From: an uncultured Clostridia bacterium
GTDB lineage: Bacteria; Bacillota; Clostridia; TANB77; CAG-508
DNA: 64,000 nt
Assembly (NCBI GenBank): GCA_944387555.1
Contig: CALXFH010000001.1
Location: forward strand, 82,849-146,848
Direction of reading: 5' to 3'
Shown piece by piece: positions 21,891-47,694 of the stretch (positions within the stretch are counted from its first letter, which is position 1; each line of letters opens with the position of its first letter). The position numbers and the translations under genes were made by a program. Below the pieces are notes generated by a model, which saw nothing but the letters and a program-made list of their open reading frames with translations, ran no database searches and was not told the DNA's origin.

Positions 21891-21899
21891 CACTTAAAA

Positions 21900-25489: not shown

Positions 25490-27418
<1,929 letters not shown>

Positions 27419-28644: not shown

Positions 28645-28860
28645 AATAATTAATTAAAAAATAATTAATAAAAAAATAATTAATTAAAAAATAATTAATT
28701 AAAAAATAATTAATTAAAAAATAATTAATTAAAAAATAATTAATTTAAAATAAATTAATTTAAAATTAATTAATTAAAAATAAATTAATAAAAAAATAAT
28801 TAATTAAAAATAATTAATAAAAAAATAAATTAATTTAAAATAATTAATAAAAAATTAATG
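28645..28860. repeat. Microsatellite, ~13 units of a 16-bp repeat, AAAATAATTAATTAAA
   Basis: Read directly from the sequence. Confidence 0.9.
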
Positions 28861-29214
28861 ATTAAAAAAATAAAAAAATAAAAATATTCATTAAGAAAAT
28901 TAAAAGATTTTAAAATAGAAATGAGTTACAAAATAAAATAAAAATTATAAGTAGTTGGTTAAAATGAAAAGATAAAATACAAAGATAAAAAATCCAAATA
29001 AAAGTAAAAAAATATTATAAAGAAATAGGTTAAAAATGTTAGGCGTTTAAAAGAAAGCGGTAATGAATAAAATTAATTACCATTCAAGCAGAATTAGAAA
29101 AATAAGTTTACATATAAGAAAATAATAAATAGAAAAATGTTGTTATATTTTTAGGTTTTATTAAAATAAAGTTTAAAGAATTTAAAATATATTTATATTT
29201 AATTTATATAAATA

Positions 29215-29530
29215 TTAAATAAAAAATAAATTAATTTAAAAAATAATTAATTTAAAAAACAATTAATTAAAAAATAATTAATTTAAAAAACAATTAATTA
29301 AAAAATAATTAATTAAAAAATAATTAATTAAAAAATAATTAATTTAAAAAACAATTAATTAAAAAATAATTAATTAAAAATAAATCAATTTAAAAAATAA
29401 TTAATTAAAAAGTAATTAATTAAAAAATAATTAATTAAAAATAAATTAATTTAAAAAATAATTAATTAAAAAGTAATTAATTAAAAAATAATTGATTAAA
29501 AATAAATTAATTAAAAAATAATTAATAAAA
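29215..29530. repeat. Microsatellite, ~19 units of a 16-17-bp repeat, AAAA(A/C)AATTAATT(A/T)AA; a shorter related block lies at 29985-30120
   Basis: Read directly from the sequence. Confidence 0.9.
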
Positions 29531-30165
29531 TAAATAATTAATTACAAAATAATTATTTAAATAAAAATAATTTTTTTATAAAAATAAAAAAAATCTAATT
29601 AAAGAAAAATAATCAATTAAATAATTGTATATAAAGAAAAAATTAAAAATAAAAAGGAGGTTGCATAAATTTTGAAAAGTTTAAAAGAAATTATAAAAGA
29701 AACTTTAAAAAATATAAAAAAGGAATTAAAAGAATTACTAAAAAGGCTTAGGCATTAAAAGAAAAAGAAGAATTGATAAAATGAAAGACAAATTTAAAGT
29801 GAGTAGCTACAAAGGTTTACATATATAAAAATAAAATTCTTAATGCTATTTAAATAAATAAGTTTGTTGTTTCGATTTAGTATTTCAAAAAAATAAAATT
29901 TCATAAAATTAAAAAGAAAAAATAAAATATTTAATTTTAAATATTAATAAAAAATAATCAATTAGAAATAAATTAATTAAAGATAATTAACAAAAAAATA
30001 ATAAAATAAAAAATAAAATAAATTAAAAAATAAATTAATTAAAAAACAAATTAATTAAAAAATAAATTAATTAAAAAAATTAATTAAATAAAAATAATAA
30101 AATAAAAAAAATTAATTAACAAAAATGAATAATTAATTTTATTAAATAGAAAAAGGAGGAGAAAA

Positions 30166-32034
30166 TTGTTAAAAGAAAAAATAGAAAATATATTTAATAA
30201 AAATAAAAAAGAAATTAATGATAATTTTTTTGAAGGGACTATATATAAAAAAGATGAAATATCACCAGCATATATAGATATGCAAAATCCTAAATATTTA
30301 GAAATAGATAATTTATATTATGGAGGATTAATAGTAGTAGATTATTATAGAGAACAGACAGATATCATTTTAAAAACATTAATAGAAACTAATATTAATA
30401 TGAATATTTCTGTTTTTTATGAAAAACAAGATCCGTTTAAAACTATAAAAGATTTAACATATCATATAGGTAATGTAGGAGTAGAATTAAAAGAAAGTAA
30501 TCAAAACAGAGAGGATATAGATATAGCAGCTTTTACATACAATGATGCTAAATATATAAGAAAAGAAATACAAGTAAATAATGAAGATATTTATTATTTA
30601 TATATTTATATTAGTATATATGCAGAGAATGTAAAAGAATTAGAATACTATTTAAATAAAATAGAAGGTATTGCACAAAGCAAAGGCATGCAAACAAGAA
30701 GAGCAAATTTTAGACAAGAAGAATTATTTTTATCTTGCTTACCTATAATGGAAAATAATAATACAATAAAAGATGCAGCGAGAAGAAACGTCTTAACTTC
30801 TGGTTTACTTGCAACATACCCATTTATATCTTCTACTATATTTGACCAAGATGGAATCTTTATTGGTACTAATATATATAATAATTCTTTAGTTTTTATA
30901 GACAGATATAATAATCAAAAATATAAAAATGCTAATATATGTATATTTGGAACTAGTGGAGCTGGTAAATCATTTTATACTAAATTATTAATATTAAGAT
31001 ATAAACTATTAGGGATTAGTCAATATATAATAGACCCAGAAAGAGAGTATGACCATTTATGTGAAAGTTTAAAAGGAACACAAATTAAAATAGGACCTAA
31101 TTCAGATACATATATTAATGTTTTGGAAATAAGAAAGGAAAGTTTGGAAGAAGGAGAAAGCGGATATTTAGCTACTAAAATAGGAAAGCTTATAGGTTTC
31201 TTTAATCTAATATTTGGGGAATTAAATGAAGAAGAGAAGGCTTTAATAGAAGAGAAACTAATAGATACATATAAAATGAAGAATATTAATTTTGATGATA
31301 AAAGCTTATATAAAGAAATAAGAACAAATAAAAAGATAAAAAAGGTATTTAAAGATCCACAAGATATGCCAATACTAGAAGATATATATAATATATTAGG
31401 AAAAGATGAGAGAACTAAAAAATTTCAAATAAAACTTATTCCTTTTGTTAAGGGGTCTATGAAATTCTTTAATAATATATCGAATATAAAATTAGATAAT
31501 GAATTAATAGTTGCAGATATATATGATTTAGGAGAAGAGAATTTAAAATATGGTATGTATTTATTTACAGAAATATTTTGGGACAAGATTAAAGAAAACA
31601 GAAATGAAAAGAAAGCAATATACTTAGATGAAATATGGAGATTAATAGGTGTAACATCTAATAAAGAAGTTGCAAGCTTTATATATAAAATATTTAAGAC
31701 TATTAGAAAATATGGTGGTAGTGGAGTAGCAATAACACAAGATATATCAGATATATTTAGTTTGGATAATGGTACATATGGAAAAAGTATTTTAAATAAT
31801 TCTAGTATTAAAACATTTTTTGCATTAGAAGAGGAAAATATAAAAATACTTTCAGATTTTACTAATTTATCAGAAAAAGAAAAAGTAGAAATTAAATCTT
31901 TAAAAAGGGGAGAGTGTTTAATGTTTGTTGGTGATGAACATATATTAACTAAAATAGAATGTTCTGAATTAGAACAAGAAATATTAGAGGGAGGAAAGAA
32001 TAAGAATAATGAAAAAAATAATATTAGCAATTGA
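30166..32034 (+). CDS. VirB4-like ATPase paralog with an N/K-rich biased composition
   Basis: Walker A CIFGTSGAGKSFYT; Walker B KKAIYLDEIWRLIG (DE-x-W); the N-terminal region parallels 181..2205; RBS AAAGGAGGAG. Confidence 0.65.
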   Translation: MLKEKIENIFNKNKKEINDNFFEGTIYKKDEISPAYIDMQNPKYLEIDNLYYGGLIVVDYYREQTDIILKTLIETNINMNISVFYEKQDPFKTIKDLTYHIGNVGVELKESNQNREDIDIAAFTYNDAKYIRKEIQVNNEDIYYLYIYISIYAENVKELEYYLNKIEGIAQSKGMQTRRANFRQEELFLSCLPIMENNNTIKDAARRNVLTSGLLATYPFISSTIFDQDGIFIGTNIYNNSLVFIDRYNNQKYKNANICIFGTSGAGKSFYTKLLILRYKLLGISQYIIDPEREYDHLCESLKGTQIKIGPNSDTYINVLEIRKESLEEGESGYLATKIGKLIGFFNLIFGELNEEEKALIEEKLIDTYKMKNINFDDKSLYKEIRTNKKIKKVFKDPQDMPILEDIYNILGKDERTKKFQIKLIPFVKGSMKFFNNISNIKLDNELIVADIYDLGEENLKYGMYLFTEIFWDKIKENRNEKKAIYLDEIWRLIGVTSNKEVASFIYKIFKTIRKYGGSGVAITQDISDIFSLDNGTYGKSILNNSSIKTFFALEEENIKILSDFTNLSEKEKVEIKSLKRGECLMFVGDEHILTKIECSELEQEILEGGKNKNNEKNNISN

Positions 32035-33289
32035 AAATAAAAAGTTAGAAGATAAATTAAAAGAAAATAATAATATAAAAATAATATGTAACAATTTACA
32101 ATATAGAGAAGCTATTTTAGAAATATTAGATAAAAATAAAAATATAGATTTTATTTTAATTAATGAAAATTTACCAGGAATAATTAGTATAGAAGAATTA
32201 GTAAAAAAAATAAAAATAATTAATAATAAAATTAATATAATTATTTTTTTAGAAAAAGATGATATTAATAAAATAAATAGATTAAAAAAATTAAATATAA
32301 ATAATATTTATTTAAATAAAAAAATAAATATAAATAAAATAATTAATTTAATTCTTAAAAATAATAAATTTAATAATAATTATAATAAAAATAATTTATT
32401 AAATTATAAAATAAAAAAAGAAAAAATAAATAATAATAAATTAATTAAAATAAATAATTTTAAAAATAATAAATTTAATAAATTAAAAATTATTTTAAAT
32501 AAAATTAAATTAAATAAAAATAAATTAAACAATAATATTCATTTAAATAATAAAAATAAAAAAGAAAATAAATTAATTACTATAATGGGAAAAAGAAAAA
32601 CAGGAAAAAGTACAATAATAAATTTATTATTAATTTATTTATTACAAAAAAATAAAAAAATATTATTAATTAATTTAAATAAACAATTAGAAAATAATTA
32701 TTTAATTTTATTCGGAAAAAAATATTATAAAATTAAAAATAATTATTTTAATAAATATAATTTAATTAATAATAAATTAAATAAAAAAAATATTTTTTTA
32801 AAATCTGAAATTAAAATAAATAATAATTTATTCTTTTTAAATAATTTCCAAAAAATAATTCAACAAAATAATTATAATAATATTTTAGAATATTTTACTA
32901 AATATTATATTAAGAAATATGATTATGTTTTAGTAGACATCGGAGATAGTGCAAATAGAAGAATAAAACAAAAAATAGTAAAAATAAGTGATAAAAACAT
33001 AATGGTTATGACCAATGATTTACTAGGCATTAAAGAGGTAGAGAGATTAAGTCTGGAGTCAAACTTAAAAGAAGATAACAAAGAAAATAGTTTACATATA
33101 ATACTTAATAAATATTATTTTAATTCAATTAGCAACAGCATTTTTAAAAATTTGGTTAAAAGAAAAATAAAATTTAGTACAATTTTTTATAATAAAAAAT
33201 TTATAAATCTTTCAAATAAAATTTTAAAAAATAGAAAATTTAATTTTAATTTATTTTTTAAAAATAAATTAAAAAATATTTTAAAATAA
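32009..33289 (+). CDS. Pseudo-receiver domain fused to a ParA/MinD-family ATPase (TadZ/CpaE-like architecture); extreme N/K/I low complexity
   Basis: N-terminal receiver-like fold in which the phospho-acceptor position is N (FILINENLPG). P-loop ITIMGKRKTGKSTIINLL; Walker B-like DYVLVDIGD. The 3' end overlaps a satellite core copy (33033-33102). Confidence 0.45.
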   Translation: MKKIILAIENKKLEDKLKENNNIKIICNNLQYREAILEILDKNKNIDFILINENLPGIISIEELVKKIKIINNKINIIIFLEKDDINKINRLKKLNINNIYLNKKININKIINLILKNNKFNNNYNKNNLLNYKIKKEKINNNKLIKINNFKNNKFNKLKIILNKIKLNKNKLNNNIHLNNKNKKENKLITIMGKRKTGKSTIINLLLIYLLQKNKKILLINLNKQLENNYLILFGKKYYKIKNNYFNKYNLINNKLNKKNIFLKSEIKINNNLFFLNNFQKIIQQNNYNNILEYFTKYYIKKYDYVLVDIGDSANRRIKQKIVKISDKNIMVMTNDLLGIKEVERLSLESNLKEDNKENSLHIILNKYYFNSISNSIFKNLVKRKIKFSTIFYNKKFINLSNKILKNRKFNFNLFFKNKLKNILK

Positions 33290-36200
33290 AATTGATTAAA
33301 TAAAAAAATAAATAAAATTAATTAAATTAATTAATAAAAATAAAATAATTATTTTTAATAAAATAAAAAATTAATTAAAAAATAATTATTAATTAAAAAT
33401 AAAAAATAATTAATTTAATAAAATATTAAAATAAATATAAAAAATATTTTTTAAATATTTAAATAATTTAATTAATTAAATATTTAATAAAAATAAAAAT
33501 AATTTTTTATAATAAATATTAATTTTTATTTTTTAATAATTTAGGAATAAATTATTTTAAAAATTTTAAATTATAAAATTATATTTTTAAAAATAAAAAA
33601 ATTATATAAAAATATTTTAAAAAACTTATAAGAATAAAAATAGTTAATAAAATTATAGAAAAAATAATCAATAAAATGTTAGGCATTAAAAGGATTAGAG
33701 AGTTATTAATAAAATATAGAAAAACAAGAAAAAGGTTTACATATAATAATTAATAAAAACAAATCAGATATGGAGATTAGATATATTTTTAATAATTTTA
33801 CTGGTAAAAAATTAAAATTTACTATGATTTAATATTATTAAAAAATAATATTAAATAAAAAATAATTAAACAAATTAAAATATTAATTTAAAAATATTTA
33901 TAGAATAAATTAAAAAAATATTTTAATAAAAAATAAATAAAATTAATTAATAAAAATTATTCAATAAAATAAAAAATAAAATTAATCATTACTAATTAAT
34001 AAAAAATAATTAATTAATAATAAAAAAATAAATAATTAAATAAATAAAATAATGAAATAAATGAAAATAATTTAATTAAATAAAAAATAAATATTAAAAT
34101 AATTAAATAATTAATTTATTTAAAATAATTATTAAAAATAAAAAATTAAATTATAAAAAAATAAAATAAATTTTTTCTAATAATTTTATTAATAAAATAG
34201 AAATTTAAAATATAAAAAAATGTTTTACCAGATATAAATGTTTTTAATTAAAATAAAAGTTCACAAAAAAGACAATAGCATAAAAGAATAATAAAAAATA
34301 TTTATGAAATTGGTAAAAAATAATTAATAAAAAACTAGGCATTAAAAGAATTGAACGATTATTAATAAGCCACTGAATAATAAACAAAAAAGTTTACATA
34401 TAACATATTATAAATATTATTTTTCTTGGATTATTAATCAGTGTTTTCAAGAATTTTCTTAAATACTAAAATTAAATTCATTTTATTTTTATAAAAATAA
34501 ATTAAAATAAATAATATAAAAAATTAATTTTATAAAATTAATAAAAAATATTTAATTTAAAAATAAATAAAATTAATTAATAAAAAAATTATTTAATTAA
34601 ATTAAATAATAATAAAAAATAATAATTTAAAAATAAATAAATTAATTAAATAAATAAAAAAATATTTTAATAATTAAAATATTAATTAATTTAAATTAAT
34701 AAAAAACAATTATTAATTAAAAAATAAAAATAGTTAATTAAATAAAAAATTAAAAAATAAATATAAAAAATATTTAAATAATTAATTAATATAAAATAAT
34801 AAAAATTAATTTTAAAAAATATATTTTAAATTATAAACTAAAGAACCAAAAATTATAGAGGAAAAATTATAGTTACTTTTCTGTTAATCTTAAAAAGCAT
34901 ACATAAGGATAAAAAATATAAAATAGAAAGCAAAATATAGTAAAAATAATTAATGAATTACTAGGCATAAAAGGGATAGACAAGCTAGATTTTAAATAAA
35001 TAAAATAGAAGAAAATAGTTTACATATTTTTGTTAAATTAAATTTGATTTTATCTAATTATTTAAAATAATTTAAAAAATTGTTGTTATAAAAAAGAAGT
35101 TTATTATAATTTTTTATCAAATATTAAAATAGAAAATAGAAATTATAAAAAATTAATTTAAAATATTTTTTAAAAATAAAAAATATTTAATAAATAAAAT
35201 TAATTAATAAAAAGTTATTTAATAAAATAAAAAATAAATAAAAATAATAAAATAATTATTTAAAAACAAATAATTTAAAATTTAATTAAATATAAAATAA
35301 TTATTAATTAAAAATAAAATTAATTTAAAAAATATTAAAATAAATATAAAAAAGATTTTTTTAAATATTTATATAATTTAATTAATTATTTATAAAAATA
35401 AAAATAATTTTTTATAACAAATATAATTTTTGATTTTGAATAATAAGAAGAAATTATATTAAAAAAAATAATATAAAAGGATTTTATAATGACTATCATA
35501 ATAAAATAGTTAATAAAAGCATAAAAAATAATTAATAAAATGTTAGGCATTAAAAGGATTGCACGATTAATAACAGAGAAAGAAAAAACAACAAAAATAG
35601 TTTACATATAACGAATGATTTAAATTATTTTTATTTAATAAAAGAGTCTGATTTAAAAAAATTATTAAAACAAAGATTAAGTTTATTATTATTTTTTATA
35701 ATAAAAAATTTAAAAATATAAAAAAGAAAATATTAAAAATTAATTTTAAAACATTTTTTAAAATTAAATAAAAAATATGTTAATAAAAAAATAAATAAAA
35801 TTAGTTAATAAAAAATTTATTTAATTAAATTAAAAAAATAATAAAAAATAATTAAATAATTAAAAATATAAATAATAAAAAAATAATAATTAAAAAATAA
35901 TTTTAATTAAATAAAAAAATATTTAATTAATTAAAATAAAAAATAAATATTTAAAATATTAATTTAAAATAATTTTATTATAAAAAATAAAATAAAATTA
36001 AAAAAATTATTTTTATAGCAATAATATTTTTGATAATAAAAAATAAAAAAGGTAGTATTGAAATTTTTCTAATTTAAAGAATAGTTTAAATTAATAAAAA
36101 AATATAATAAAAACAAAATAATTTGTGAAAATGTTAAAAAAATAAATTTTAAAAAGTTAGGCATTAAAGGGATTGCAAGATTAATAATAGATTAGAAGAA

Positions 36201-36850
36201 GACAAGAAAAATAGTTTACATATAATGAATAATTGAAATTACTTTTATTTAATCTAGAGAACTTATTTTAAAAATATTATTAAAATAAAAATAAAATTTG
36301 TATAGTTTTCATTCTAATAATTTAGAAAAAAGAATATTAAAAAATAAAAAATTAATTTAAATTTATTAAAAAAATAGAATAATAAAAAATAAAATTAATT
36401 ATTTAAATAAATAAAAAATATTTAATAAAAAATAAATTAATTATTTAAATAAATAAAAAATAATTAATAAAAAAATAAATTAATTATTTAAATAAATAAA
36501 AATAATAAAATTAATTATTTAATAAATAAAAAGAATTAATAAAAATAAATTAGTTGTTTTTAATAAATAAAAAATAAAATTTTTTAAAATTTGTTTTTAA
36601 ATCTAAATTTGATTTTTAAGTAAAGCATAAAGATTTAAAATCTGAAATTAAAATCTAAAAAATATTCCAGAGAATTAATTAAATATTAAATAGAAAGATA
36701 ATATTTTTTAAAAAATTGTTATTTATATTTAATTTAAATATACGCAAATAAGCATTTTTAAAAATATGAACGAGTAAAAAGAATAAAAGAAAACAGTTAA
36801 CATATAAAAGAAAACGTTAACTATATTAAAGAAGTATTTTTAAAAGATTC
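33033..36850. repeat. Satellite-like tandem array of ~7 units with a 580-660-bp period. Each unit has a conserved ~70-bp core, (T)TAGGCATTAAAAGG-N45-AGTTTACATATAA
   Basis: Core copies at 33033-33102, 33679-33746, 34336-34403, 34962-35027, 35543-35611, 36157-36225, and a degenerate copy at ~36770-36830. The spacings are 646, 657, 626, 581, 614 and ~610 bp. Confidence 0.8.
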
Positions 36851-37066
36851 TACAAAAATTATAAACTAAAAAGAATATAAAAAATTATTTATTATTTTAT
36901 AAAAAGAAAATTATAAAATTAATTTATTTAATTTTATAAATAAATAATTATTTTAATTAATAATTAGAAAAATAAATTATTTTATTTTAAATAAAATAAT
37001 TAAAATTAAAATAATTAAAAATAAAAAATAATTAAATAAAAATAGAAAAAGAAAGGATGAAAAAAT

Positions 37067-37792
37067 ATGGAAATGGAAAATTTAGAAAAAAATAATAATT
37101 TAGAAATAGAAAACAATTTAGAGGTGGAAAATGAACAAAAAGGATTCTTAGAATCTACTTTAGGAAAAACAATTAATGCAGCAGTGGATATTGGTATTAG
37201 AGCTTTATTACCTGACTTTATAGATGAACAAGTAATTAATATAAAGGATAATTTATTAGAGTATGGACTAAAAGATGGAATAACAAAAACTATTGATGAT
37301 GCTATCGATTTAGGAAAAAGTGCTATAGGTATTTTTAAAGGAGACTTTGAAAATGTATCTCAAATGCAAAGTGCAGTTCAAAATGGAGGTTTAATTGATG
37401 GAGTTTCTGATTTATTAGATGTAGTAGTAGATAAAGTAAATGATGCTGGTTTAATTAGTAATAATGTAGCAAAAACAATTAAACAAGGAAAAGACGTTAT
37501 TTTAAGTAATGTAGAAAGTAATATAGAAAATACATTTAGTAAACAATATGAAGCTATAGAAAATGTAGATAATTATATTAGTAGCTGGAAAGAAAGTTTT
37601 GAAAAACAAGATTTTGATGCTATGGAAAAAGAATACCAAAAACTAGAAGAACAAATGCAAGATATTGCACCTATTACTAAAACAATAGAAGAAGCTAAAA
37701 CTATAGAAGTATTACATAACTTAATTAAAAATAATGGACAAGACTTTAATTTAAGTAATGAACAATTAGAATTAGTGGAAAAATTAAAATAA
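37067..37792 (+). CDS. Hypothetical acidic protein
   Basis: ORF with normal composition and an RBS (AAAGGATGA) 7 nt upstream; no family recognised. Confidence 0.4.
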   Translation: MEMENLEKNNNLEIENNLEVENEQKGFLESTLGKTINAAVDIGIRALLPDFIDEQVINIKDNLLEYGLKDGITKTIDDAIDLGKSAIGIFKGDFENVSQMQSAVQNGGLIDGVSDLLDVVVDKVNDAGLISNNVAKTIKQGKDVILSNVESNIENTFSKQYEAIENVDNYISSWKESFEKQDFDAMEKEYQKLEEQMQDIAPITKTIEEAKTIEVLHNLIKNNGQDFNLSNEQLELVEKLK

Positions 37793-37814: not shown

Positions 37815-38783
37815 ATGGAGAAAAAAATAAATACTAATATTGAAAATAATAAACGAAATGAAAAAGAAATAAATAATAAAAATAATACATATAAAGAGGA
37901 TAATAAAAAGAAATTTAAATTATTAGATCCAAAAAATGATGTTGTATTTCAAATGTTATTTCTTAAAAATAATTTAGCAAAAGGATTATTAGATAATATT
38001 TTAATAGATAAAATAATTTCTGTAAATGTTGATGTAAATAAACAGTTATTAGGAGATAGACCAGAAGATAAAATAGGAATAGTAGATTTAAGAGCAATAA
38101 TAAATAATGAAATAGAATGTGAAGTAGAAATGCAAATGTTTTATTTTAATAATTTTGTTCCGAGATTTTTAGATTATTGGTCTAAAATGTATTCAAGACA
38201 ACTAAAAAAAGGAGATAATTATGACTTATTACATAGAGTTATTTCTATTGCTATTATTAATCAAAATATTCCAGACTTAAAAGGATTACCAGCACATACT
38301 ATATGGAATATAAGAGAATCTAGGAATCATAGAAAAATATTGACAAATAACTTAGAGTTACATATAATAGAAATACAAAAGGCTAAAGAGGAATATAAAC
38401 ATAACAAGGATGATAAATTATTACAATGGATAAAGTTTCTAGAAAACCCAGAAAGCAAGGAGGTAGATAGAATAATGGTAAGTAATAAAGAAATAAAAGA
38501 AGCTAAAAAAGAATTATTTAGCTTAAGCCAAGATGAAGAAAACCAAAGAATAGCAGATTTTAGAGAAAGAGAAATTATGGATAGAAAGGATATCTACGAA
38601 ACAGGAAAGGATGAAGGTAAGGCAGAAGGAATAAAAGAAGGAAGAAAAGAAGGAATAAAAGAAGCAAGAGAAACTTTTATAATAAATTTACTTAAGATTA
38701 AAATGCCAATTGATAAAATAATAGAATTTACAAGTGCAACTAAAGAAGAAATTGAAAAAATAAAGGAAAGTAAAAATCTATAA
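37815..38783 (+). CDS. Rpn-family (YhgA-like) PD-(D/E)XK recombination-promoting nuclease / putative transposase
   Basis: N-terminal DPKNDVVFQMLF...EVEMQ pattern; C-terminal repeat-helix domain ...KEGRKEGIKEARETFIINLLKIKMPIDKIIEFT..EEIEKIKE. Confidence 0.6.
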   Translation: MEKKINTNIENNKRNEKEINNKNNTYKEDNKKKFKLLDPKNDVVFQMLFLKNNLAKGLLDNILIDKIISVNVDVNKQLLGDRPEDKIGIVDLRAIINNEIECEVEMQMFYFNNFVPRFLDYWSKMYSRQLKKGDNYDLLHRVISIAIINQNIPDLKGLPAHTIWNIRESRNHRKILTNNLELHIIEIQKAKEEYKHNKDDKLLQWIKFLENPESKEVDRIMVSNKEIKEAKKELFSLSQDEENQRIADFREREIMDRKDIYETGKDEGKAEGIKEGRKEGIKEARETFIINLLKIKMPIDKIIEFTSATKEEIEKIKESKNL

Positions 38784-38828: not shown

Positions 38829-39134
38829 ATGGTAAAAAATCAAAGAATAGAAGAAATTAAAAGAGAATTAATGAATTTAAATCAAAATGAAGAAAATCAA
38901 AGGCTTATAGATTTTAGAGAAAGAGAATTAAGGGATATGATAGATCTTTACGAAACTGGAAAAGATGAAGGAAGGAAAATAGGAATAGCAGAAGCAAGAA
39001 AAGAAGCAAGAAAAACTATAATAACAAATTTACTTAAGATGAAAATACCAATTGATAAAATAATAGAAGTTACAAATGCAAGTAAGGAAGAAATTGAGAA
39101 AATAAAGAAAAGAAATTATAATAAAGAAGTTTAA
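38829..39134 (+). CDS. Tandem partial paralog of the Rpn nuclease, C-terminal domain only
   Basis: LNQNEENQRLIDFRERELRDMIDLYETGKDEGRKIGIAEARKEARKTIITNLLKMKIPIDKIIEVT.ASKEEIEKIKK aligns to the last ~90 aa of 37815..38783. Confidence 0.55.
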   Translation: MVKNQRIEEIKRELMNLNQNEENQRLIDFRERELRDMIDLYETGKDEGRKIGIAEARKEARKTIITNLLKMKIPIDKIIEVTNASKEEIEKIKKRNYNKEV

Positions 39135-39273: not shown

Positions 39274-39314
39274 GTGTCCCCAAATGCACATTTTTGAGCA
39301 AAAGGAAACGTCCC
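39274..39314 (-). repeat. GGGAC-element copy A (reverse orientation), immediately 3' of the XRE gene stop
   Basis: Reverse complement reads gggacgtttccttttgctcaaaaatgtgcatttggggacac; compare copies at 44684 and 47707. Confidence 0.7.
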
Positions 39315-39685
39315 TATTTTTTATTTTTTTCATATTCTTTGAAAAATGAATATGATGTAGTTAATATTTTATAATAATAGTCCTTCATTTCTTCAGAACT
39401 TCTATTTAATATTCTATCTATTTTTTGTGAGGTTGAATTTGTTTCTTCATTACCAAATAAAATATAGTCTGTAGATACTCCAGTAAATGCTACTATACGG
39501 CATAATGTTTTTATACTTAATGAACGTTCGCCTCTTTCTATTTGCCCTAAGAATATATCAGATATATCAACTGCTTCTGAAAATACTTCTCTACTCATTT
39601 TCATGTTTTCTCTTGCTTTTCTTATTCTTTCTCCTACTTCTAAATTATTTGGTATCTTTGTATCCATATTATTCCTCCCAAACAT
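39314..39685 (-). CDS. XRE-family helix-turn-helix transcriptional regulator, divergent from the DGR target gene
   Basis: HTH LSREVFSEAVDISDIFLGQIERGERSLSIKTLCRIVAFTGVSTDYIL. Confidence 0.75.
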   Translation of the reverse strand: MFGRNNMDTKIPNNLEVGERIRKARENMKMSREVFSEAVDISDIFLGQIERGERSLSIKTLCRIVAFTGVSTDYILFGNEETNSTSQKIDRILNRSSEEMKDYYYKILTTSYSFFKEYEKNKK

Positions 39686-39995: not shown

Positions 39996-41375
39996 ATGTA
40001 TAATTATTCTAAAAATTATAATTTTAATTCTAATAAAGATAAAATAAAAGACAAAATAAAAAAGATAAAAACAAATAATTCTGGTATTACTATTGTTGCT
40101 TTAGTTGTAACTATTATTGTTTTATTAATTTTAGCAGGAATAACAATAGGAGCAATTACTGGAGATAATGGTATTATTAATAAAGCGCAAGAAGCTAAAA
40201 ATGATACCAATTATGCTCAATGGGAAGAAAAGATTGACCAAGCTATCATAGATGCAGAAAGTAAATACAGAAATCCAACTATGATTAATGTAAAAGAAGA
40301 GTTAAGAGATAAAGGCATAATTGAAGATTATGACAAAGTAGATGACAAAACAGGAGCTATAACAACAGTAGATGGTACCATAATAGAAGGTAAGCTTGAT
40401 GATTATATAGAGTTTGGACCAGGTATGGTAGCGGATAAGAATGAAACTTATACAGATGCAAATGGAGACACAGCAACGATACCAAAAGGTTTTGAGATAT
40501 TAGAAGATGCAAGTACAGTAGATGATGGTTTAGTTATTCAAGATGAAAGTGGTAACCAATTTGTATGGATACCAGTAGAAACACCAGTAGCAAGTGCAGA
40601 AGCAGATGGAACAACAAATAAAGCAATGGCAATAAAGAATGGAAATAATTATAGAGGTTTACTTTATGACTTTACTAGTACAGGCTCAACAGTAAAAAGT
40701 GGATGTACAACGACTACAAGTAGTTATAGAGAGCCAGCTTATTTAACAGATTCAAGTTATGCGGATGGGTCTTCATATAATCAAGATGGAGATGGAAATA
40801 AAATAGTAACAGAAGATAGTCTACAACAAGAATATAATAAAATGATGGCAAGCGTTGAACAATATCATGGCTTTTATGTAGGAAGATATGAACTTGGTTT
40901 AGAAGGAACAACGCCAGTAGTAAAAAACGCAAGTACGAATTCAGGTGTTACAACAGCAGATGCAAGTAATTCAAATACTAAGATGTGGTATGGCTTATAT
41001 AGTAAGTGCAAAGAATTTGCACCAGAAGATAGTAATAAATCAGTGGTAAGTAGTATGATATGGGGAAGTCAATATGATGAAATGCTTAATTGGATGCAGG
41101 CAAATGGAGAAGATGTGTCAGCATCAGCTGATAACACTGAAACAATAAGAAATAATTCTACAAAAACAGGAAGTCAAGAAAAAGATTTTATGAAAAATGT
41201 ATATGACCTTTATGGATGTCATTATGAGTGGAAATTAGAGGCCAACATCACGAAAGAACGTGTTTATCGTGGAGGTAATTCTAGCAGTAGCAGCGCTCCT
41301 AGCAGCCGTCGCAGCACCTATTCGAGCAATGCCAGCAGTACCTATTCAGCCCGTCTCACTTTATATATAAAGTAG
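39996..41375 (+). CDS. DGR target (variable) protein. N-terminal pilin-like hydrophobic anchor, beta-rich central region, and a C-terminal FGE-sulfatase/C-type-lectin-fold-like domain ending in the VR
   Basis: N-terminus ..NNSGITIVALVVTIIVLLILAGITIGAITG; C-terminus ..DLYGCHYEWK..ERVYRGGNSSSSSAPSSRRSTYSSNASSTYSARLTLYIK; strong RBS AGAAGGAGG. Confidence 0.8.
   Translation: MYNYSKNYNFNSNKDKIKDKIKKIKTNNSGITIVALVVTIIVLLILAGITIGAITGDNGIINKAQEAKNDTNYAQWEEKIDQAIIDAESKYRNPTMINVKEELRDKGIIEDYDKVDDKTGAITTVDGTIIEGKLDDYIEFGPGMVADKNETYTDANGDTATIPKGFEILEDASTVDDGLVIQDESGNQFVWIPVETPVASAEADGTTNKAMAIKNGNNYRGLLYDFTSTGSTVKSGCTTTTSSYREPAYLTDSSYADGSSYNQDGDGNKIVTEDSLQQEYNKMMASVEQYHGFYVGRYELGLEGTTPVVKNASTNSGVTTADASNSNTKMWYGLYSKCKEFAPEDSNKSVVSSMIWGSQYDEMLNWMQANGEDVSASADNTETIRNNSTKTGSQEKDFMKNVYDLYGCHYEWKLEANITKERVYRGGNSSSSSAPSSRRSTYSSNASSTYSARLTLYIK
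41240..41360 (+). repeat. DGR variable repeat (VR) at the 3' end of the target gene
   Basis: Matches the TR at 43522..43632; over a 93-nt core, 14 of 16 mismatches correspond to adenines in the TR. Confidence 0.8.
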
Positions 41376-41489
41376 TACTGAGACCTGAGTTGTGAGTATT
41401 GGAAATAGTAGAAAATTAAAACATTAAGAGAATTTAATTTTTTAGGTTGTAAAAGAATAAAAACTGTAGTAAAATTTAAGTTAATAGAA

Positions 41490-41580
41490 AGGTAGGTAGG
41501 AAATTCCCTTGCAGGGCGAAGACGCCAAAAGGGGATTTCCTACCGGACTAGTCCGGTAAGACTAGTCCTATTTTTTTGCG
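41490..41580 (+). other. GC-rich nested palindromes downstream of the VR (candidate DGR target-recognition hairpin / terminator)
   Basis: ggtaggaaattccc-[ttgcagggcgaagacgccaaaa]-ggggatttcctacc; ggactagtcc-ggtaa-gactagtcc-tattttttt; gcgaaaaaataggact. Confidence 0.5.
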
Positions 41581-41648
41581 AAAAAATAGGACTAAGAACA
41601 ACGAAAGGTTACATAAAACCTTATAAAAATAGAAAGGTGGGATTTTTT

Positions 41649-42080
41649 ATGAAATTTTTAAAAAGAATAGAAAAAATAAAGTCAGAAAATGAAGATAAAA
41701 TAGTATTAGCAAGATGTGGATTATTTGTAGTGGCAGTAGGAAATGATGCAAGAATATTAAGTAAAGAATTTGGATTAAAGAAAACTTGTATGAAAAGAGG
41801 GGTATGTAAAGTAGGAATACCTGCTAGCTATGCATTAAAATATTTAAAATTAATAGAAGATAAAGGTTATAGTTATTTATTATATGACTATGATAAAAAT
41901 ACAAAAGAAATGATAGAAAAATATAGATATATTGGTACTAATAAAGTAGAAGAAATTAGCATAGATTGTCCTTCTTGTGAAAATTATAAAGAACAAGATG
42001 TTATAGATATCTTTGAATTATTAAGAAGAAAAAAAGAAAAAAATAAAAAAGAAGTAAATGGGGAAAAAGAAAATGAATGA
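41649..42080 (+). CDS. Small protein with a MutS domain I (mismatch-binding domain)-like sequence, located between the DGR target and Avd. The ORF track uses a GTG start at 41637
   Basis: KIVLARCGLFVVAVGNDARILSKEFGL...VCKVGIPASYALKYLKLIEDKGYSYLLYD parallels MutS [25 protein letters not shown]...[29 protein letters not shown]. The Phe is conserved and the Glu is not. AAAGGTGGG lies 8 nt upstream of ATG 41649. Confidence 0.45.
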   Translation: MKFLKRIEKIKSENEDKIVLARCGLFVVAVGNDARILSKEFGLKKTCMKRGVCKVGIPASYALKYLKLIEDKGYSYLLYDYDKNTKEMIEKYRYIGTNKVEEISIDCPSCENYKEQDVIDIFELLRRKKEKNKKEVNGEKENE

Positions 42081-42468
42081 AAAAAGTAGAGAAAATAACA
42101 TAAGAGAAAATGGAAAAAATGAACTAATATTAATACCAAAATATGAAAGATATATGCAGTATATGATAGAAATAATTTTAAAAATGCCAAGAACAGAAAA
42201 ATTTAATATAGGAAATGAATTTAAAACAGTTATGTATAAATGCTTAGAAAATATACTGTATTTAAATAAAATAGAAATATCAAAAAGAATGTATTATTTA
42301 AATTTAATAGATGCAGGTTTAAATATTCAAAGAATAATGCTTAGGATAATGTTAAAAAATAAGTGGATAGATAAAAAGAAATATTTAGTATCAATGGAGT
42401 TGTTATATGAAATAGGAAAAATATTAGGAGGATTAATAAAGTTTTATGCCAAAAACAATAAGAAATAA
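42058..42468 (+). CDS. avd: Avd-like DGR accessory protein (small basic helical protein); the likely start is ATG 42073
   Basis: ~130 aa, basic, predicted all-helical; sits immediately upstream of the RT and overlaps its start. Confidence 0.55.
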   Translation: MGKKKMNEKSRENNIRENGKNELILIPKYERYMQYMIEIILKMPRTEKFNIGNEFKTVMYKCLENILYLNKIEISKRMYYLNLIDAGLNIQRIMLRIMLKNKWIDKKKYLVSMELLYEIGKILGGLIKFYAKNNKK

Positions 42469-43462
42469 GTATTATAAATATTTAACATTTAATAGGCTTA
42501 TGGAAGCACATAAGAAAGCAAGAAGGGGAAAAGGATATAGAGAAGAAATAATAAAATTTAATCTAAAACAAGAAGAATATATAATGTATCTATTAGAAAG
42601 GTTGAGGAATAAGAGTTATAAACATGGAGGCTATAAAGTATTTTATATAACAGAGCCAAAACCTAGAAAAATAGAACGTTCAAGATATATAGATAGAATA
42701 GTACATACATTTTATGTAGAAAACTTTTTAAAACCATATTTTATGCCTTGTTTTATAAATACAAGTTATGCATGTATTCCATGTCGTGGTATGCATAAGG
42801 CATGTTTAGATGTGCAAAAAGCTATGAAACATTGTAAAAATATTTGGGGAGAATATTACATTCTAAAGATGGATGTAACAAAATATTTCCAAAATATAGA
42901 TAAGGACATATTGTTAGAAATATTAAAGAAGAAAATAAAGGATAAAGATTTATTGTGGTTAACAAAAGAAATAATATATTCAAATAAAGGAAAAAAGAGT
43001 TTACCAATTGGAAATTATACATCACAAATGTTTGCAAATATTTATTTAAATGAATTAGACCAATATGTGAAAAAAGAATTGGGAATAAAATATTACTTTC
43101 GTTATATGGATGACTCAGTTTTATTTGTACGTGGCAAAGAAGAAGCTAAATGCTATTTAGAAAAAATAAAAGAATTTATTTATTCTAAATTAGAACTAAC
43201 ATTAAATAAAAAAACACAAATATTTAAATCTAAACAAGGAGTAAATTTTTGTGGTTATAAAATAAATGAATATAGACTAAAGATTAGGGATAAAGGAAAA
43301 AGAAAATTAAAGAAAAAAATCGTAAAGTTAAAAAAGTTAATAAAAGAGGGAGAGCTTACAAGTGATGATGCTAAAAAATATTTAGTAGGTCATCTAGGAT
43401 ATATAAAAATAGCAGATACATATAAGTTAGAAAATAAACTATTTTATAGAGAAAATAAGTAA
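42446..43462 (+). CDS. DGR-type reverse transcriptase
   Basis: Motif 4 LPIGNYTSQMFANIYL (the [ILV]GxxxSQ DGR signature); motif 5 FRYMDDSVLF (YMDD); motif A region ILKMDVTKYFQNI; 338 aa with no maturase or endonuclease domains. Confidence 0.85.
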   Translation: MPKTIRNKYYKYLTFNRLMEAHKKARRGKGYREEIIKFNLKQEEYIMYLLERLRNKSYKHGGYKVFYITEPKPRKIERSRYIDRIVHTFYVENFLKPYFMPCFINTSYACIPCRGMHKACLDVQKAMKHCKNIWGEYYILKMDVTKYFQNIDKDILLEILKKKIKDKDLLWLTKEIIYSNKGKKSLPIGNYTSQMFANIYLNELDQYVKKELGIKYYFRYMDDSVLFVRGKEEAKCYLEKIKEFIYSKLELTLNKKTQIFKSKQGVNFCGYKINEYRLKIRDKGKRKLKKKIVKLKKLIKEGELTSDDAKKYLVGHLGYIKIADTYKLENKLFYRENK

Positions 43463-43521
43463 ATTTAGAAAATATAAAAAATTATTAAGTAAAAATAATT
43501 TTAATTAGGGATAAATCAAAA

Positions 43522-43632
43522 GGCCAACAACACAATAATCGTGGAGGTAATTCTAACAATAGCAACGCTCCTAGCAATCGTAACAACAACAATCCGAACA
43601 ATACCAACAGTAACAATTCAGCCCGTCTCACT
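43522..43632 (+). repeat. DGR template repeat (TR), rich in AAC/AAT codons
   Basis: ggccaacaacacaataatcgtggaggtaattctaacaatagcaacgctcctagcaatcgtaacaacaacaatccgaacaataccaacagtaacaattcagcccgtctcact. Confidence 0.85.
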
Positions 43633-43877
43633 CTAATACGATTCTAGATTATATATTTTAAGGAATATATACAATGAAAGTATTAGTATTAAAGAGATTT
43701 ATTCCTTCCTAATATAGGTAAAAAAGTATCAGTAAAATAGGTATTAGTAAAAATACCAAGAAGTATTTTGAATATACTTATTTTACAATTAATTATTTAA
43801 TTTAAGTTGATATATTTTTATTTAATTTAATTTATTTTATTTTTTAAATACTTAAAATTAATTTAAAGAGGTAAAAA

Positions 43878-44144
43878 ATGAATATATGTTTTGTAATAGG
43901 AAAAATAATAAGTGATATACAATTTGATTTTATAATAGACGGAAAAAGTATTGGGAAAAAATTTTCAATTGTAAGATTTGAAATAGAATTGCTAGATAAA
44001 GAAAAAACAAAAGTAAGTGTAATAGCTTATGGAAAAATAGCAGAAAAATGCTTTCAAAAGTTAGTAAAAAGTGATATTGTAAGTATATATGGCGACCTGA
44101 ATTCTAATGGAAAGTTAGAAATAGAAGAAATAGATTTATTATAA
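43878..44144 (+). CDS. Mini SSB-like OB-fold protein (88 aa) lacking the acidic tail
   Basis: MNICFVIGKIISDIQF..GKKFSIVRFEIEL..VIAYGKIAEKCFQKLVKSDIVSIYGDL follows the SSB N-terminal OB-fold pattern; RBS AAAGAGG. Confidence 0.4.
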   Translation: MNICFVIGKIISDIQFDFIIDGKSIGKKFSIVRFEIELLDKEKTKVSVIAYGKIAEKCFQKLVKSDIVSIYGDLNSNGKLEIEEIDLL

Positions 44145-45231: not shown

Positions 45232-47694
45232 ATGGAAGAAACACCAAAAAGAAATGACGGAAAAATAATAGAAAGAGACATCGAAAAAGAAATGAGAACA
45301 GCCTACATAGACTATGCAATGAGTGTTATTGTATCACGTGCACTTCCAGACGCAAGAGATGGTTTAAAACCAGTACATAGAAGAATATTATATGCTATGT
45401 ATGAAGATGGAATAACATCAGATAAACCATACAGAAAGAGTGCTAATACAGTAGGTTCAGTTCTAGGAAGATACCATCCACATGGAGATAGCTCTGTTTA
45501 TGATGCAATGGTAAGAATGGCACAAGACTTCTCAATGAGATACCAATTAATAGATGGACATGGAAACTTTGGTTCTGTAGACGGTGATGGAGCAGCAGCT
45601 ATGAGGTACACAGAAGCTAGAATGTCAAAAATAGCATCATATATGCTTACAGATATTGAAAAAAATACTGTAGACTTTATGCCAAACTATGATGATAGAT
45701 TACAAGAACCAACAGTATTACCAGCAAGAATACCATTGTTATTAGTAAATGGATCATCAGGTATAGCCGTAGGTATGGCGACAAACATACCACCACATAA
45801 CTTAACAGAAGTTATAAATGGAATAATAAAAGTAATAGATGAAGACAATGTGTCAGATGAAGACTTAATGAAAATAATAAAAGGACCAGATTTCCCAACA
45901 GAAGGACTAATATTAGGACGTGAAGGAATTAAAAAAGCATATACAACAGGAAGAGGAAAAATAACATTAAGAGCAGAAACAAACATTGAGGAAATGAGTG
46001 GAAATAGACAAAGAATAATAGTTTCATCATTACCATATCAAGTAAATAAAGCAAACTTAATAAAAACAATATCAGAATTATCTAAAGAAAAGAAAATAGA
46101 AGGAATCTCAGAATGTAGAGATGAATCAGATAGAAAAGAAAAAGTAAGAGTAGTAATAGAACTAAAAAGAGATACAAATGCACAAGTTGTATTAAACCAA
46201 TTATTTAAACATACACAAATGCAAACAACATTTGGTGTTATAATGCTTGCATTAGTTAATGGAGAACCAAAAATATTAACATTAAGACAAGCAATAGATG
46301 TTTATATTCAGCATAGAAAAGAAGTTATAACAAGAAGAACACAATTTGATTTAGATAAAGCATTAGCAAGAGCTCATATATTAGAAGGATTAAGAATAGC
46401 AATAGACAACATCGATGAAGTAATTCAAATAATACGTTCATCATATGATGATGCAAAAGAAAGATTAATGGAAAGATTTGGATTATCAGATGTACAAGCT
46501 CAAGCAATTCTAGATATGAGATTAAAAACACTATCAGGTTTGCAACGTGAAAAAATAGAAGAAGAATATAAACAATTAATGGAATTAATAGACCATTTAA
46601 GAGCAATACTTTCAAGTGAAAAACTACTATTTGATGTAATGAAAGAAGAATTAATCGAAGTAAGAGATAAATTTGGAGATGAAAGAAAAACAAAAATAGT
46701 AGCATCAGAAGCAGAAATAGAATTAGAAGACTTAATAAAAGAAGAAGAATGTGTAGTAGCTCTAACACATTATGGTTATATTAAGAGAATGCCAATAGAT
46801 ACATATAGAAGCCAAAGAAGAGGCGGGAAAGGTATAACAGGAATGGTAACTCGTGAAAATGATTTTGTAAAAGAAATCTTTATAGCGTCAACACATGATA
46901 CGATTCTATTCTTCTCAAATAAAGGAAAACTATATAAATTAAGAGGATATGAAATACCAGAAGCAGGAAGAACTGCAAAAGGAACAGCAATAGTTAATTT
47001 ATTAAGTTTAGACCCAGGAGAAAAAGTATCAGCAGTAATACCATTACAAAACTTTGCAGAAGGAAAATACCTACTTATGGCAACAAAGAATGGATTAATT
47101 AAGAAAACAGCATTAAAAGAATATGATACAACAAGAAGAACAGGATTACAAGGAATAACACTAAAAGATGACGATGAATTAATAGCAGTTAGATTAACAG
47201 ACGGAGAAGATAATGTTGTATTAGTTACAAGAAAAGGATTATGTATAACATTTGATGAAAAAGAAGTAAGACCAATAGGTAGAGTAGCACAAGGTGTTAT
47301 AGGAATAAGACTAGATGACGATGATGAAGTAATTGGTATGGAATCTGTAATAAATGGAGGAAAAGCAACATTACTAGCAATAACTGAAAATGGATTTGGT
47401 AAGAGAACAGAACTTGATGAATATAGAGTACAAAAAAGAGGCGGAAGAGGAGTAATCACATATAAGATTACACCAAAGACAGGAGAACTAATAGGAGTAA
47501 GAATTGCAACTGAAGATGATGAAGTAATGTTAGTTACAGATACAGGAACAATTATAAGATTAAAAGTAAAAGATATAAGCATCTTAGGAAGATCAACACA
47601 AGGAGTTACTCTAATGAGAACAAGCGATGGTGGAAAAGTAGTAGGAATGGAAATACTAACACCAGAAAAAGAAGAAATAGGAAAAATGTTATAA
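45232..47694 (+). CDS. gyrA: DNA gyrase subunit A
   Basis: Active-site region AAMRYTEARM; GyrA box; C-terminal beta-pinwheel repeats. Confidence 0.97.
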   Translation: MEETPKRNDGKIIERDIEKEMRTAYIDYAMSVIVSRALPDARDGLKPVHRRILYAMYEDGITSDKPYRKSANTVGSVLGRYHPHGDSSVYDAMVRMAQDFSMRYQLIDGHGNFGSVDGDGAAAMRYTEARMSKIASYMLTDIEKNTVDFMPNYDDRLQEPTVLPARIPLLLVNGSSGIAVGMATNIPPHNLTEVINGIIKVIDEDNVSDEDLMKIIKGPDFPTEGLILGREGIKKAYTTGRGKITLRAETNIEEMSGNRQRIIVSSLPYQVNKANLIKTISELSKEKKIEGISECRDESDRKEKVRVVIELKRDTNAQVVLNQLFKHTQMQTTFGVIMLALVNGEPKILTLRQAIDVYIQHRKEVITRRTQFDLDKALARAHILEGLRIAIDNIDEVIQIIRSSYDDAKERLMERFGLSDVQAQAILDMRLKTLSGLQREKIEEEYKQLMELIDHLRAILSSEKLLFDVMKEELIEVRDKFGDERKTKIVASEAEIELEDLIKEEECVVALTHYGYIKRMPIDTYRSQRRGGKGITGMVTRENDFVKEIFIASTHDTILFFSNKGKLYKLRGYEIPEAGRTAKGTAIVNLLSLDPGEKVSAVIPLQNFAEGKYLLMATKNGLIKKTALKEYDTTRRTGLQGITLKDDDELIAVRLTDGEDNVVLVTRKGLCITFDEKEVRPIGRVAQGVIGIRLDDDDEVIGMESVINGGKATLLAITENGFGKRTELDEYRVQKRGGRGVITYKITPKTGELIGVRIATEDDEVMLVTDTGTIIRLKVKDISILGRSTQGVTLMRTSDGGKVVGMEILTPEKEEIGKML

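Follow-up and report, generated by a model that had tools for sequence, protein, structure and literature searches.

Does the interval between gyrB and gyrA of an uncultured Clostridia bacterium hold a complete diversity-generating retroelement (DGR), and could this element still diversify its target? We addressed this question in a stretch of 64,000 nucleotides (contig CALXFH010000001.1 of assembly GCA_944387555.1, positions 82,849 to 146,848 of the forward strand; hereafter the window) from a lineage of Clostridia metagenome-assembled genomes (MAGs) with roughly 24% G+C. A first-pass annotation, made from the letters alone, had proposed a complete DGR with the order target gene, small open reading frame (ORF), avd, reverse transcriptase (RT) and template repeat (TR). 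Our analysis supports the DGR interpretation. With high confidence, the region 39996-44144 is a chromosomal DGR of the Msl + Avd architecture, based on the RT, the Avd protein, an adenine bias between the TR and the variable repeat (VR), a lectin-fold target, a 3′ RNA scaffold and about 50 relatives built alike. The gene order was found as claimed and extends, all on the forward strand, to target(VR) - msl - avd - RT - TR - structured 'spacer' RNA (Rfam RT-14) - SSB-like ORF. The cassette lies between gyrB (25490-27418) and gyrA (45232-47694), about 25 kb from dnaA and the GC-skew switch.

The gut microbiome is rich in DGRs, and the DGR itself is an ordinary member of the known Msl/Avd class, present here as a partly damaged copy. 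Moderate interest lies in what surrounds it: an SSB-like gene found clade-wide and possibly undescribed, a re-reading of the RT-14 RNA based on covariation, and an unannotated family of pilin-like lectin targets.

Template and variable repeats differ mainly at template adenines

The VR (41237-41360, 124 nt) forms the 3′ end of the target gene, and the TR (43519-43632, 114 nt) follows the RT gene. Local alignment and ungapped comparison placed TR 43538-43632 against VR 41266-41360 free of gaps over 95 nt, with 16 mismatches. Fourteen of these fall on TR adenines (9 A>G, 3 A>C, 2 A>T) and the other two are transitions (43578 T>C, 43594 C>T), so that the computed alignment reproduced a count previously made by hand. 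Tabulated by TR base, the mismatches show a clear adenine bias (hypergeometric P=1.2e-5 for at least 14 of 16 at A, given 36 A in the 95-nt TR core). Further upstream, TR 43519-43535 matches VR 41237-41253 with three mismatches, each at a TR adenine, and the whole gapped alignment (TR 43519-43635) places 18/21 mismatches at TR adenines. The third non-A mismatch in this longer alignment (C/T at 43633/41361) sits just beyond the 3′ boundary of the repeats. A scan of both strands with adenines as wildcards detected no further VR-like copy in the window.

All 14 differing codons are nonsynonymous. Counted in the VR frame, the adenines of the TR core are distributed over codon positions 1, 2 and 3 as 19, 14 and 2, i.e. 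A is avoided at position 3, and none of the 31 codons can be mutated to a stop. With AAY making up 14/31 codons, the initial description of the TR as almost entirely AAC/AAT was overstated; the codon make-up is nevertheless the classic DGR template design, with a diversity potential of ~10^21 DNA and 10^19.5 protein variants.

At their 3′ ends, TR and VR have in common a G+C-rich 14-mer (CAGCCCGTCTCACT, 41347-41360 in the VR), and identity ends at 41360/43632. Past the 14-mer the TR reads CTAATA and the VR TTATAT, a divergence that falls inside a predicted DNA hairpin. We regard the segment 41346-41388, i.e. the G+C-rich block followed by the VR-specific TTATAT sequence, as a candidate target-recognition element. 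Block and hairpin are consistent with an element of the initiation-of-mutagenic-homing (IMH) type, by analogy with Bordetella, whose IMH and hairpin provide the model for VR 3′ recognition (PMC3240598).

Reverse transcriptase, Avd and Msl

The RT (42446-43462, 338 aa) matches Pfam RVT_1 and has as its best solved relative the Bordetella bRT (8ub7_A, E=2.7e-37, residues 3-328 vs 3-315), compared to 1e-17 for group II RTs and 4e-15 or weaker for retron RTs. In the alignment with bRT, motif 4 of the window RT, LPIGNYTSQ, corresponds to IPIGSLTSQ (LPIGNYTSQMFAN vs IPIGSLTSQLFAN), and YMDD, here within YFRYMDD, is conserved; no maturase or endonuclease domain was detected. The ORF, its short length, its IGNYTSQ and FRYMDD motifs and the missing maturase and endonuclease domains are thus as first described, and in the profile comparison with DGR, group II and retron RTs bRT came first, with [ILV]GxxxSQ present in the alignment.

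It is extremely improbable that the RT derives from a different prokaryotic retroelement, be it a remnant of a group II intron, a retron or a defence system, and that the TR/VR similarity is an unrelated duplication: the NCBIfam group II, retron and Drt models do match, as expected of any RT, and some phage records label homologous RTs 'retron-type', but all NCBIfam scores remain far under their cutoffs (125.7 vs 300; 72 vs 235), bRT leads the solved structures by 20 orders of magnitude and matches over the full length, avd and msl adjoin the RT gene, Rfam detected RT-14 instead of intron RNA domains or msr/msd, and the adenine-biased TR/VR pattern recurs in ~50 relatives. The group II intron, retron and chance-repeat readings were therefore rejected on the bRT match, the sub-cutoff NCBIfam scores and the adenine bias.

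Upstream of the RT, the gene at 42058-42468 encodes Avd (136 aa, or 131 aa from the gene-caller start at 42073). The HMM search suggested for this ORF gave a Pfam bAvd match above the cutoff (E=3.5e-16, 60.1 bits vs 40), and a profile search of the PDB matched Bbp7/Avd (4dwl, E=0.002).

The small ORF between the target gene and avd is, judged from its protein sequence, Msl, a known class of DGR accessory protein. Following the gene calls on identical contigs, msl spans 41649-42080 (143 aa from ATG 41649; the mechanical ORF opens at GTG 41637). Residues 8-92 match Pfam MutS_I (E=7.8e-8, 33 bits vs a cutoff of 20.6); a PDB search with Msl returned nothing informative and PHROGs no match. MutS binds mismatches through a Phe-X-Glu motif (GDFYE). 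At the corresponding place, around residues 20-35, Msl reads CGLFVVAV by eye, with the Phe kept and the Glu lost.

Related cassettes in other Clostridia

We compared the cassette to 80 related loci with RTs 57-80% identical, nearly all of them from gut MAGs named 'Clostridium sp.' or 'uncultured Clostridia', apart from two that carry the labels Staphylococcaceae and Tenericutes. Among the sampled materials are those from human, chicken, rabbit, sheep and roe deer. Most loci are ordered target-msl-avd-RT-TR, and in a sub-group msl lies ~1 kb downstream of the RT; overall, msl was found by tblastn in about 50/80 relatives. In eight relatives gyrA is also located downstream of the cassette.

TR/VR pairs in these loci were identified by an ungapped, adenine-tolerant diagonal scan. 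In ~50 of them, a TR lies just 3′ of the RT and a VR upstream, and the mismatches are almost all at A (e.g. 24/24, 22/22 and 26/26). RTs from phages or IMG/VR reach an identity of at most 40-42% to the window RT, so the clade is a cellular one.

Three loci carry a second VR-bearing target across the cassette (L017 12907-13040; L018 12941-13041; L021 892-961 and 6174-6316), with mostly adenine mismatches (21/22 in L018). The clade can thus serve two targets from one TR. In L082, a contig nearly identical to the window, four C>T changes and one A>T are clustered at positions that correspond to window 42779-42815 and split the RT into two ORFs (8451-8822 and 8829-9467).

RT-14 as the 3′ part of the template RNA

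A structured RNA known to Rfam as RT-14 (RF02921) was detected at 43631-43786 with 106.2 bits vs a gathering score of 48.1. The match is full-length and begins on the last two bases of the TR. The family was also detected in 12/12 relatives tested, and in each of them RT-14 begins 1-2 nt before the end of the TR. Within the window RNA, an outer stem (43633-43639/43680-43686, CUAAUAC/GUAUUAG) encloses an inner 9-bp stem with a tetraloop (43649-43671). By analogy with the Bordetella system, the outer stem resembles the template:primer duplex, and the inner stem-loop would by its position correspond to the Avd-binding stem-loop.

Downstream of these stems, RT-14 also holds the 3′ strand of a helix that brackets the TR, followed by a terminal hairpin. 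The 5′ strand of this helix, AGGGAUAAAUC (43507-43517), is found just 5′ of the TR in all relatives and is complementary to GAUUUAUUCCU (43696-43706). Across 28 distinct sequences, 99.4% of the cells of the 11-bp helix are paired and 8/11 pairs show compensatory changes. None of 500 shuffles reached these values, and slid registers fell to 46-69% paired. The minimum free energy fold of 43500-43790 yields the same helix independently.

In the cryo-EM structure of the bRT-Avd-RNA complex, an avd:Sp duplex referred to as 'cPRT Stop' has been described, and it has been predicted in 207 DGRs (bioRxiv 10.1101/2023.10.23.563531). The bracketing helix would, by analogy, be the counterpart of this Bordetella duplex. 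Rfam draws RF02921 as a stand-alone small RNA with its central conserved stretch unpaired, whereas here this stretch pairs with the segment 5′ of the TR. RT-14 thus forms the 3′ part of a DGR template RNA and does not stand as a small RNA of its own. A literature search for 'RT-14' together with DGRs found nothing specific. These results extend the cPRT-Stop architecture of Bordetella to a clade of Clostridia by means of a covarying helix and assign RT-14 as the 3′ half of the template RNA.

A lectin-fold target with a pilin-like N-terminus

The target gene (39996-41375) encodes a protein of 459 aa composed of a pilin-like N-terminus, a middle region and a C-terminal lectin-fold domain (residues ~288-459) that includes the VR. 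No match was obtained in Pfam or NCBIfam at E<=0.01, and none in PHROGs; among more than 5000 homologues, none is named. Since the target lacks such a Pfam match, the proposed lectin fold at its C-terminus had to be assessed by structure prediction, which backed it. An AF2 model of residues 270-459, built from a 121-sequence alignment of the last 190 residues, reached a pLDDT of 92.4, and the top Foldseek neighbours (CarF, PvdO, TvpA, PorK, FGE, EgtB and Mtd) all have the FGE/C-type lectin (CLec) fold. TvpA (2y3c, TMq 0.57) ranks fifth overall (E=4.7e-3), after CarF and PvdO, FGE-fold proteins outside DGRs that occupy ranks 1-4. At the level of sequence, Pfam FGE-sulfatase matches weakly in 7/121 target relatives and in 0/34 close homologues. 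Based on the model, we confidently place the VR at the predicted C-terminal ligand-binding face of an FGE-type C-type-lectin fold domain.

The N-terminus (..NNSG|ITIVALVVTIIVLLILAG..) has the appearance of a type-IV-pilin-like signal followed by a hydrophobic helix. Pfam N_methyl matches 30/34 target homologues (best E=1e-4), and a sequence-profile search of the PDB returned weak geopilin/MshA matches at this end (E ~0.1) and, besides these, one pFGE motif match. Position +5, read from the sequence, is Ala and not the usual Glu. A model of the full-length protein from a 34-sequence alignment was poor (pLDDT 55, C-terminus <45), and a fold search with it gave no meaningful match. We identified neither a prepilin peptidase nor pilus machinery in the window.

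Because of this type-IV-pilin-like N-terminus, the target is probably a surface or pilus-associated adhesin. Our literature search on type IV pilins as DGR targets found nothing specific except one paper that briefly lists GspG-type pilin domains among the rare targets with a VR (PMC11661182). The target family would represent a large set of probable hypervariable adhesins, so far unannotated, in gut Clostridia of low G+C content. If this holds true, type-IV-pilin-like targets whose compact lectin domain escapes Pfam at the family level would be a second, independent novelty of this clade.

An SSB-like gene as candidate fifth component

Downstream of the template RNA, an ORF of 88 aa (43878-44144) with a strong AAGAGG ribosome-binding site encodes a protein similar to single-stranded DNA-binding proteins (SSBs) with their oligonucleotide/oligosaccharide-binding (OB) fold. 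In the window itself the similarity is weak (Pfam SSB E=0.006, 17.1 bits vs a cutoff of 26). At the family level, PF00436 matches 26/40 members at E<=1 (best 5e-6), the top PDB profile matches are SSBs (E=0.04), and hhalign to Bacillus subtilis SsbA gave E=0.0018 in an alignment colinear from residue 1. The proteins end after ~80-90 aa and lack the C-terminal SSB tail. Since the window copy scores below the Pfam gathering threshold and the proteins have no tail, we refer to them as 'SSB-like' and not as canonical SSBs.

Similar ORFs accompany the RT throughout the clade. By tblastn, they were found 300-720 nt downstream of the RT in 48/76 loci with enough flank, and an HMM built from 40 family members detected a match within ~1.5 kb of the RT in 65/76. 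Three distant homologues (29-38% identical) each follow directly after Avd-RT, in the contexts radA/disA, SpaA/MucBP adhesin and mazEF. In contrast to these cellular loci, the HMM matched 0/80 viral DGR loci.

Could the ORF be a mere neighbour carried along by synteny in related genomes? We consider this unlikely. In its favour are the lack of a demonstrated function, a position outside the TR-RNA unit, the weak resemblance to SSB and 11/76 loci with no detectable copy. However, the ORF stays beside the RT/TR while the flanks vary (gyrA in only 8 loci, elsewhere radA/disA, SpaA/MucBP adhesin or mazEF), it is sometimes inverted and sometimes located between RT and msl, and homologues sampled from the protein side are next to Avd-RT in 9/9 places.

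A further-reaching proposal is that the clade has a dedicated fifth component, a tail-less SSB-like OB-fold protein of ~85 aa that may bind single-stranded cDNA or the displaced VR strand beside Msl during mutagenic retrohoming and would represent an undescribed accessory factor; we hold this proposal at a little below even odds. No SSB or OB-fold DGR accessory was found in the literature; the unnamed PAG1-4 of Wu et al. were outside this comparison, and overlap with them is possible. The gene is not mentioned in the main text of PMC5758913 or of bioRxiv 10.1101/2024.11.15.621889, and PHROGs contains no match for it or for the flanking ORFs.

In five loci (L053, L057, L059, L060 and L073), the start of the SSB-like ORF precedes the end of the RT match by 12-28 nt, and our scan detected no TR downstream of the RT. 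These cassettes represent a variant layout, in which the TR must be located at another place.

A putative mechanism

The following scheme is taken by homology from the DGR of Bordetella phage BPP-1, from which the priming site and the homing pathway are also inferred. An RNA covering at least 43507-43786 would fold so as to enclose the TR by the 11-bp helix and to wrap its 3′ portion around the RT-Avd complex. The RT would then prime itself from the 3′ RNA, copy the TR and misincorporate opposite adenines. Finally, with the G+C-rich end common to TR and VR as a guide, the cDNA would take the place of the VR, i.e. of the 3′ end of the target gene. Homing of this kind could recode up to 14 Asn (AAY) codons and five other A-containing codons on the predicted ligand-binding face of the FGE-type lectin domain, for ~10^19 possible proteins.

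For Msl and the SSB-like protein, we presume that the substrate is either the cDNA:VR heteroduplex or a single-stranded intermediate. The entry of the cDNA into the VR is the main open mechanistic question on DGRs. Genes for a MutS-domain and an SSB-like protein hard-wired into one cassette would point to such intermediates and provide two small proteins to test; if its proposed role is correct, the SSB-like protein would offer a handle on the cDNA-integration step.

Present activity of the window copy

The element was clearly active in the past. The defining DGR features described above were found, but to call the element 'complete' is too strong because the TR carries a frame-breaking 10-nt deletion relative to its own VR and to the TRs of sister lineages, and because the VR is invariant in ~44 assemblies.

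Ten nucleotides of the VR (41254-41263, AAGAACGTGT) have no counterpart in the TR, where the gap falls between 43535 and 43536. The TR reads AAAGGCCAACAACACAA|TAATCGTGG at this point and its own VR AGAGGCCAACATCACGA + AAGAACGTGT + TTATCGTGG. The claim of a 111-bp TR matching the VR thus holds for the gap-free 3′ core of 95 nt, but not for the repeat as a whole. In two sister lineages (L085 and L086), whose target proteins are 83-85% and whose RTs are 91-96% identical to those of the window, the TRs are 10 nt longer and of the same length as their own VRs. The event is therefore a deletion in the TR of the window lineage; a 10-nt insertion in the VR was rejected, as the sister TRs have the length of the VR. 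In the relatives, TR and VR are colinear over 107-147 nt, and the TRs begin directly after the AGGGAUAAAUC motif. The loss is thus damage to one copy and not a departure of the family.

Copying of the whole TR into the VR would, as a result of this deletion, shift the frame of the target. In-frame conversion is possible only if the 5′ junction lies at or after an 18-nt perfect block (ATCGTGGAGGTAATTCTA, 43538-43555); the in-frame usable part of the TR is 43536-43632. In phage BPP-1, cDNA integrates with a homology-dependent 5′ junction, which can be located within the TR. The natural deletion in the window lineage hence offers a ready test of 5′ junctions inside the TR, as the VR should either be frozen or change only in its 3′ 95 nt.

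The related strains analysed so far show a frozen VR. These data stem from assemblies, i.e. consensus sequences only, and four loci were compared as DNA. The target protein (P0121), VR included, is identical in about 42 assemblies, and a variant differing in one residue outside the VR (P0001) occurs in two more, giving ~44 assemblies from at least two projects with an invariant VR; their 90%-identity cluster contains no other sequence. At the DNA level, the four loci, which stem from two projects, differ from the window by 0-10 SNPs over 6.2 kb (99.84-100% identity), and no SNP falls in VR or TR. The heterogeneity at A-templated VR positions for which the first-pass annotation had proposed to look in related strains was not seen in these consensus sequences. 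The sister clusters (P0002/P0122 and P0004/P0123), on the other hand, differ massively within the VR.

The sister lineages also have TRs of intact length with 8-9 non-adenine mismatches to their VRs (L085 5736-5865; L086 4350-4476), and L085 shows a 3-nt indel in addition. This is more drift than in most relatives and suggests that retrohoming is infrequent across the gyrA-linked sub-clade. Comparison with the sister TRs further suggests that, since the last homing in the window lineage, position 43578 has changed in the TR and 41322 in the VR.

How far, then, has this copy decayed? At the extreme, the element would be a dead relic in the window lineage: the deletion would make every full-length retrohoming a frameshift, the cassette would be drifting to loss, and the VR would have become fixed coding sequence. 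We take this as a serious alternative with a probability not far short of one half. It is in line with a TR deletion specific to this lineage, with the non-A substitutions since the last homing in the TR (43578, compared to the TR of L086) and in the VR (41322), with a target protein that stays identical in ~44 assemblies though the flanking DNA has up to 10 SNPs, with the RT ORF split in L082 and with the non-A TR/VR mismatches of the sister lineages. On the other side, none of the ORFs for RT, Avd, Msl and the SSB-like protein is disrupted in the window or in three further loci (L081, L083 and L084), and the RT-14 RNA (106 bits) and the bracketing helix of the window are intact. In-frame 3′ conversions may still occur, by analogy with the 5′ junctions inside the TR in Bordetella. 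Moreover, the sampled strains are near-clonal (99.8-100% identity), so the invariance of the VR represents little time. Taken together, the sequence comparisons indicate that the window copy has most likely become quiescent or is confined to the 3′ 95 nt, in a family that is active.

Some further results weigh against our overall interpretation and should be considered with it. Colinearity of TR and VR fails for the full repeat and holds for the 3′ 95-97 nt, and the 10-nt deletion, the single non-A substitution in each of TR and VR and the frozen VR imply that this copy may no longer function. The split RT in L082 (3.9x coverage) may be an assembly error or a genuine inactivation. NCBIfam DivGenRetAVD scores Avd at 70.6 bits, under its cutoff of 80. 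With respect to the pilin-like nature of the target, the window's own protein stays below the Pfam N_methyl threshold, and the full-length model gave no structural match for the middle region (~60-270) and no pilin fold for the globular part, so that the pilin label refers to the N-terminal segment only.

Neighbouring DNA

Divergently oriented and upstream of the target, a gene on the reverse strand (39314-39685) encodes a regulator of the XRE type with a helix-turn-helix (HTH) domain (Pfam HTH_3 E=1.9e-11). It is kept upstream of the target in the closest relatives, and a role in regulating the target gene is possible. A promoter scan returned fewer sites than in shuffled controls, and no promoter is claimed for this reason.

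Between the target gene and msl, a terminator-like hairpin (41545-41568) followed by a T-run extends to 41578 on the forward strand, based on a consensus match and a strong fold. Between the target gene and this hairpin lies another strong hairpin, GGUAGGUAGGAAAUUCCC...GGGGAUUUCCUACC (41495-41545). The 261-nt stretch that contains it has a folding z-score of -6.6 and no Rfam match at E<=1.

At lower coordinates than the regulator, two ORFs resemble each other. The first (37815-38783) encodes a PD-(D/E)XK_2 'transposase' (Rpn-like; Pfam E=2e-33), and the second (38829-39134, 101 aa) repeats, as seen by eye, the C-terminal ~95 residues of this protein (..ETGKDEG..LLK.K.PIDKIIE.T..(S/T)KEEIEKIK..). 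The pattern resembles a partial tandem duplication that took place close to the upstream end of the DGR.

Three blocks of the window (21500-24400, 28650-30160 and 33300-37000) are very A+T-rich (6-10% G+C), with A well above T on the forward strand. They are located between dnaN and recF, after gyrB and upstream of the DGR island, contain no ORF of at least 70 aa and consist of degenerate low-complexity repeats. In the last block, more complex segments of ~215 nt recur every ~600-1200 nt (e.g. at 34315, 35523 and 36137). The ORF list, the tandem repeats of the three blocks and the direct repeats of 33200-37100 gave no clue to a function.

The gene at 30166-32034 encodes a VirB4/TraG-like P-loop ATPase (Pfam P-loop_TraG E=8e-20). 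It is followed by an ORF of 426 aa (32009-33289) with weak matches to receiver domains and to ParA/MinD-type proteins, which presumably resembles TadZ/CpaE. This ORF lies in DNA of mostly ~8% G+C, and a chance origin in such A+T-rich DNA is unlikely. As a whole, the ~18-kb gyrB-gyrA interval looks like an inserted island.

Comparison with known DGR systems

Among the structural matches to the target, the best DGR variable protein is TvpA of Treponema denticola (2y3c). Both proteins have the motifs '..YDL.G...EW' and 'R(V)xRGG' and carry the VR at the extreme C-terminus, whereas the domain in the window comprises ~170 aa compared to ~270 aa in TvpA. The accessory genes differ as well, since Treponema DGRs use HRDC and not Msl (PMC5758913).

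The Msl class was described as 'Architecture D', comprising 16 DGRs (Wu et al. 2018, PMC5758913), and Msl has also been reported in Bacteroides DGRs (bioRxiv 10.1101/2024.11.15.621889). As in the window, the members from Legionella and Bacteroides (Bfr, Bth and Bun) combine a small MutS-domain-I-like gene with avd. The Bacteroides DGRs are also similar in being gut-bacterial, chromosomal and directed at a pilus-type surface target, but their targets belong to type V pili, whereas the window protein has a type-IV-pilin-like N-terminus.

Compared to the DGR of Bordetella phage BPP-1 (mtd-avd-TR-brt), the cassette in the window is chromosomal and not phage-borne, is ordered avd-RT-TR instead of avd-TR-RT and has the additional msl and SSB-like genes. 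Its target is a pilin-like cell protein instead of a tail fibre, and the lectin domain is of the compact FGE type and not of the Mtd type. The two systems nevertheless have homologous RTs (E=2.7e-37, with IGxxTSQ and YMDD) and Avd proteins, adenine-specific differences between TR and VR, and a VR at the C-terminus of a CLec-fold protein. In both, a segment upstream of the TR pairs with the spacer RNA, and a 9-bp stem with a tetraloop lies just 3′ of the TR.

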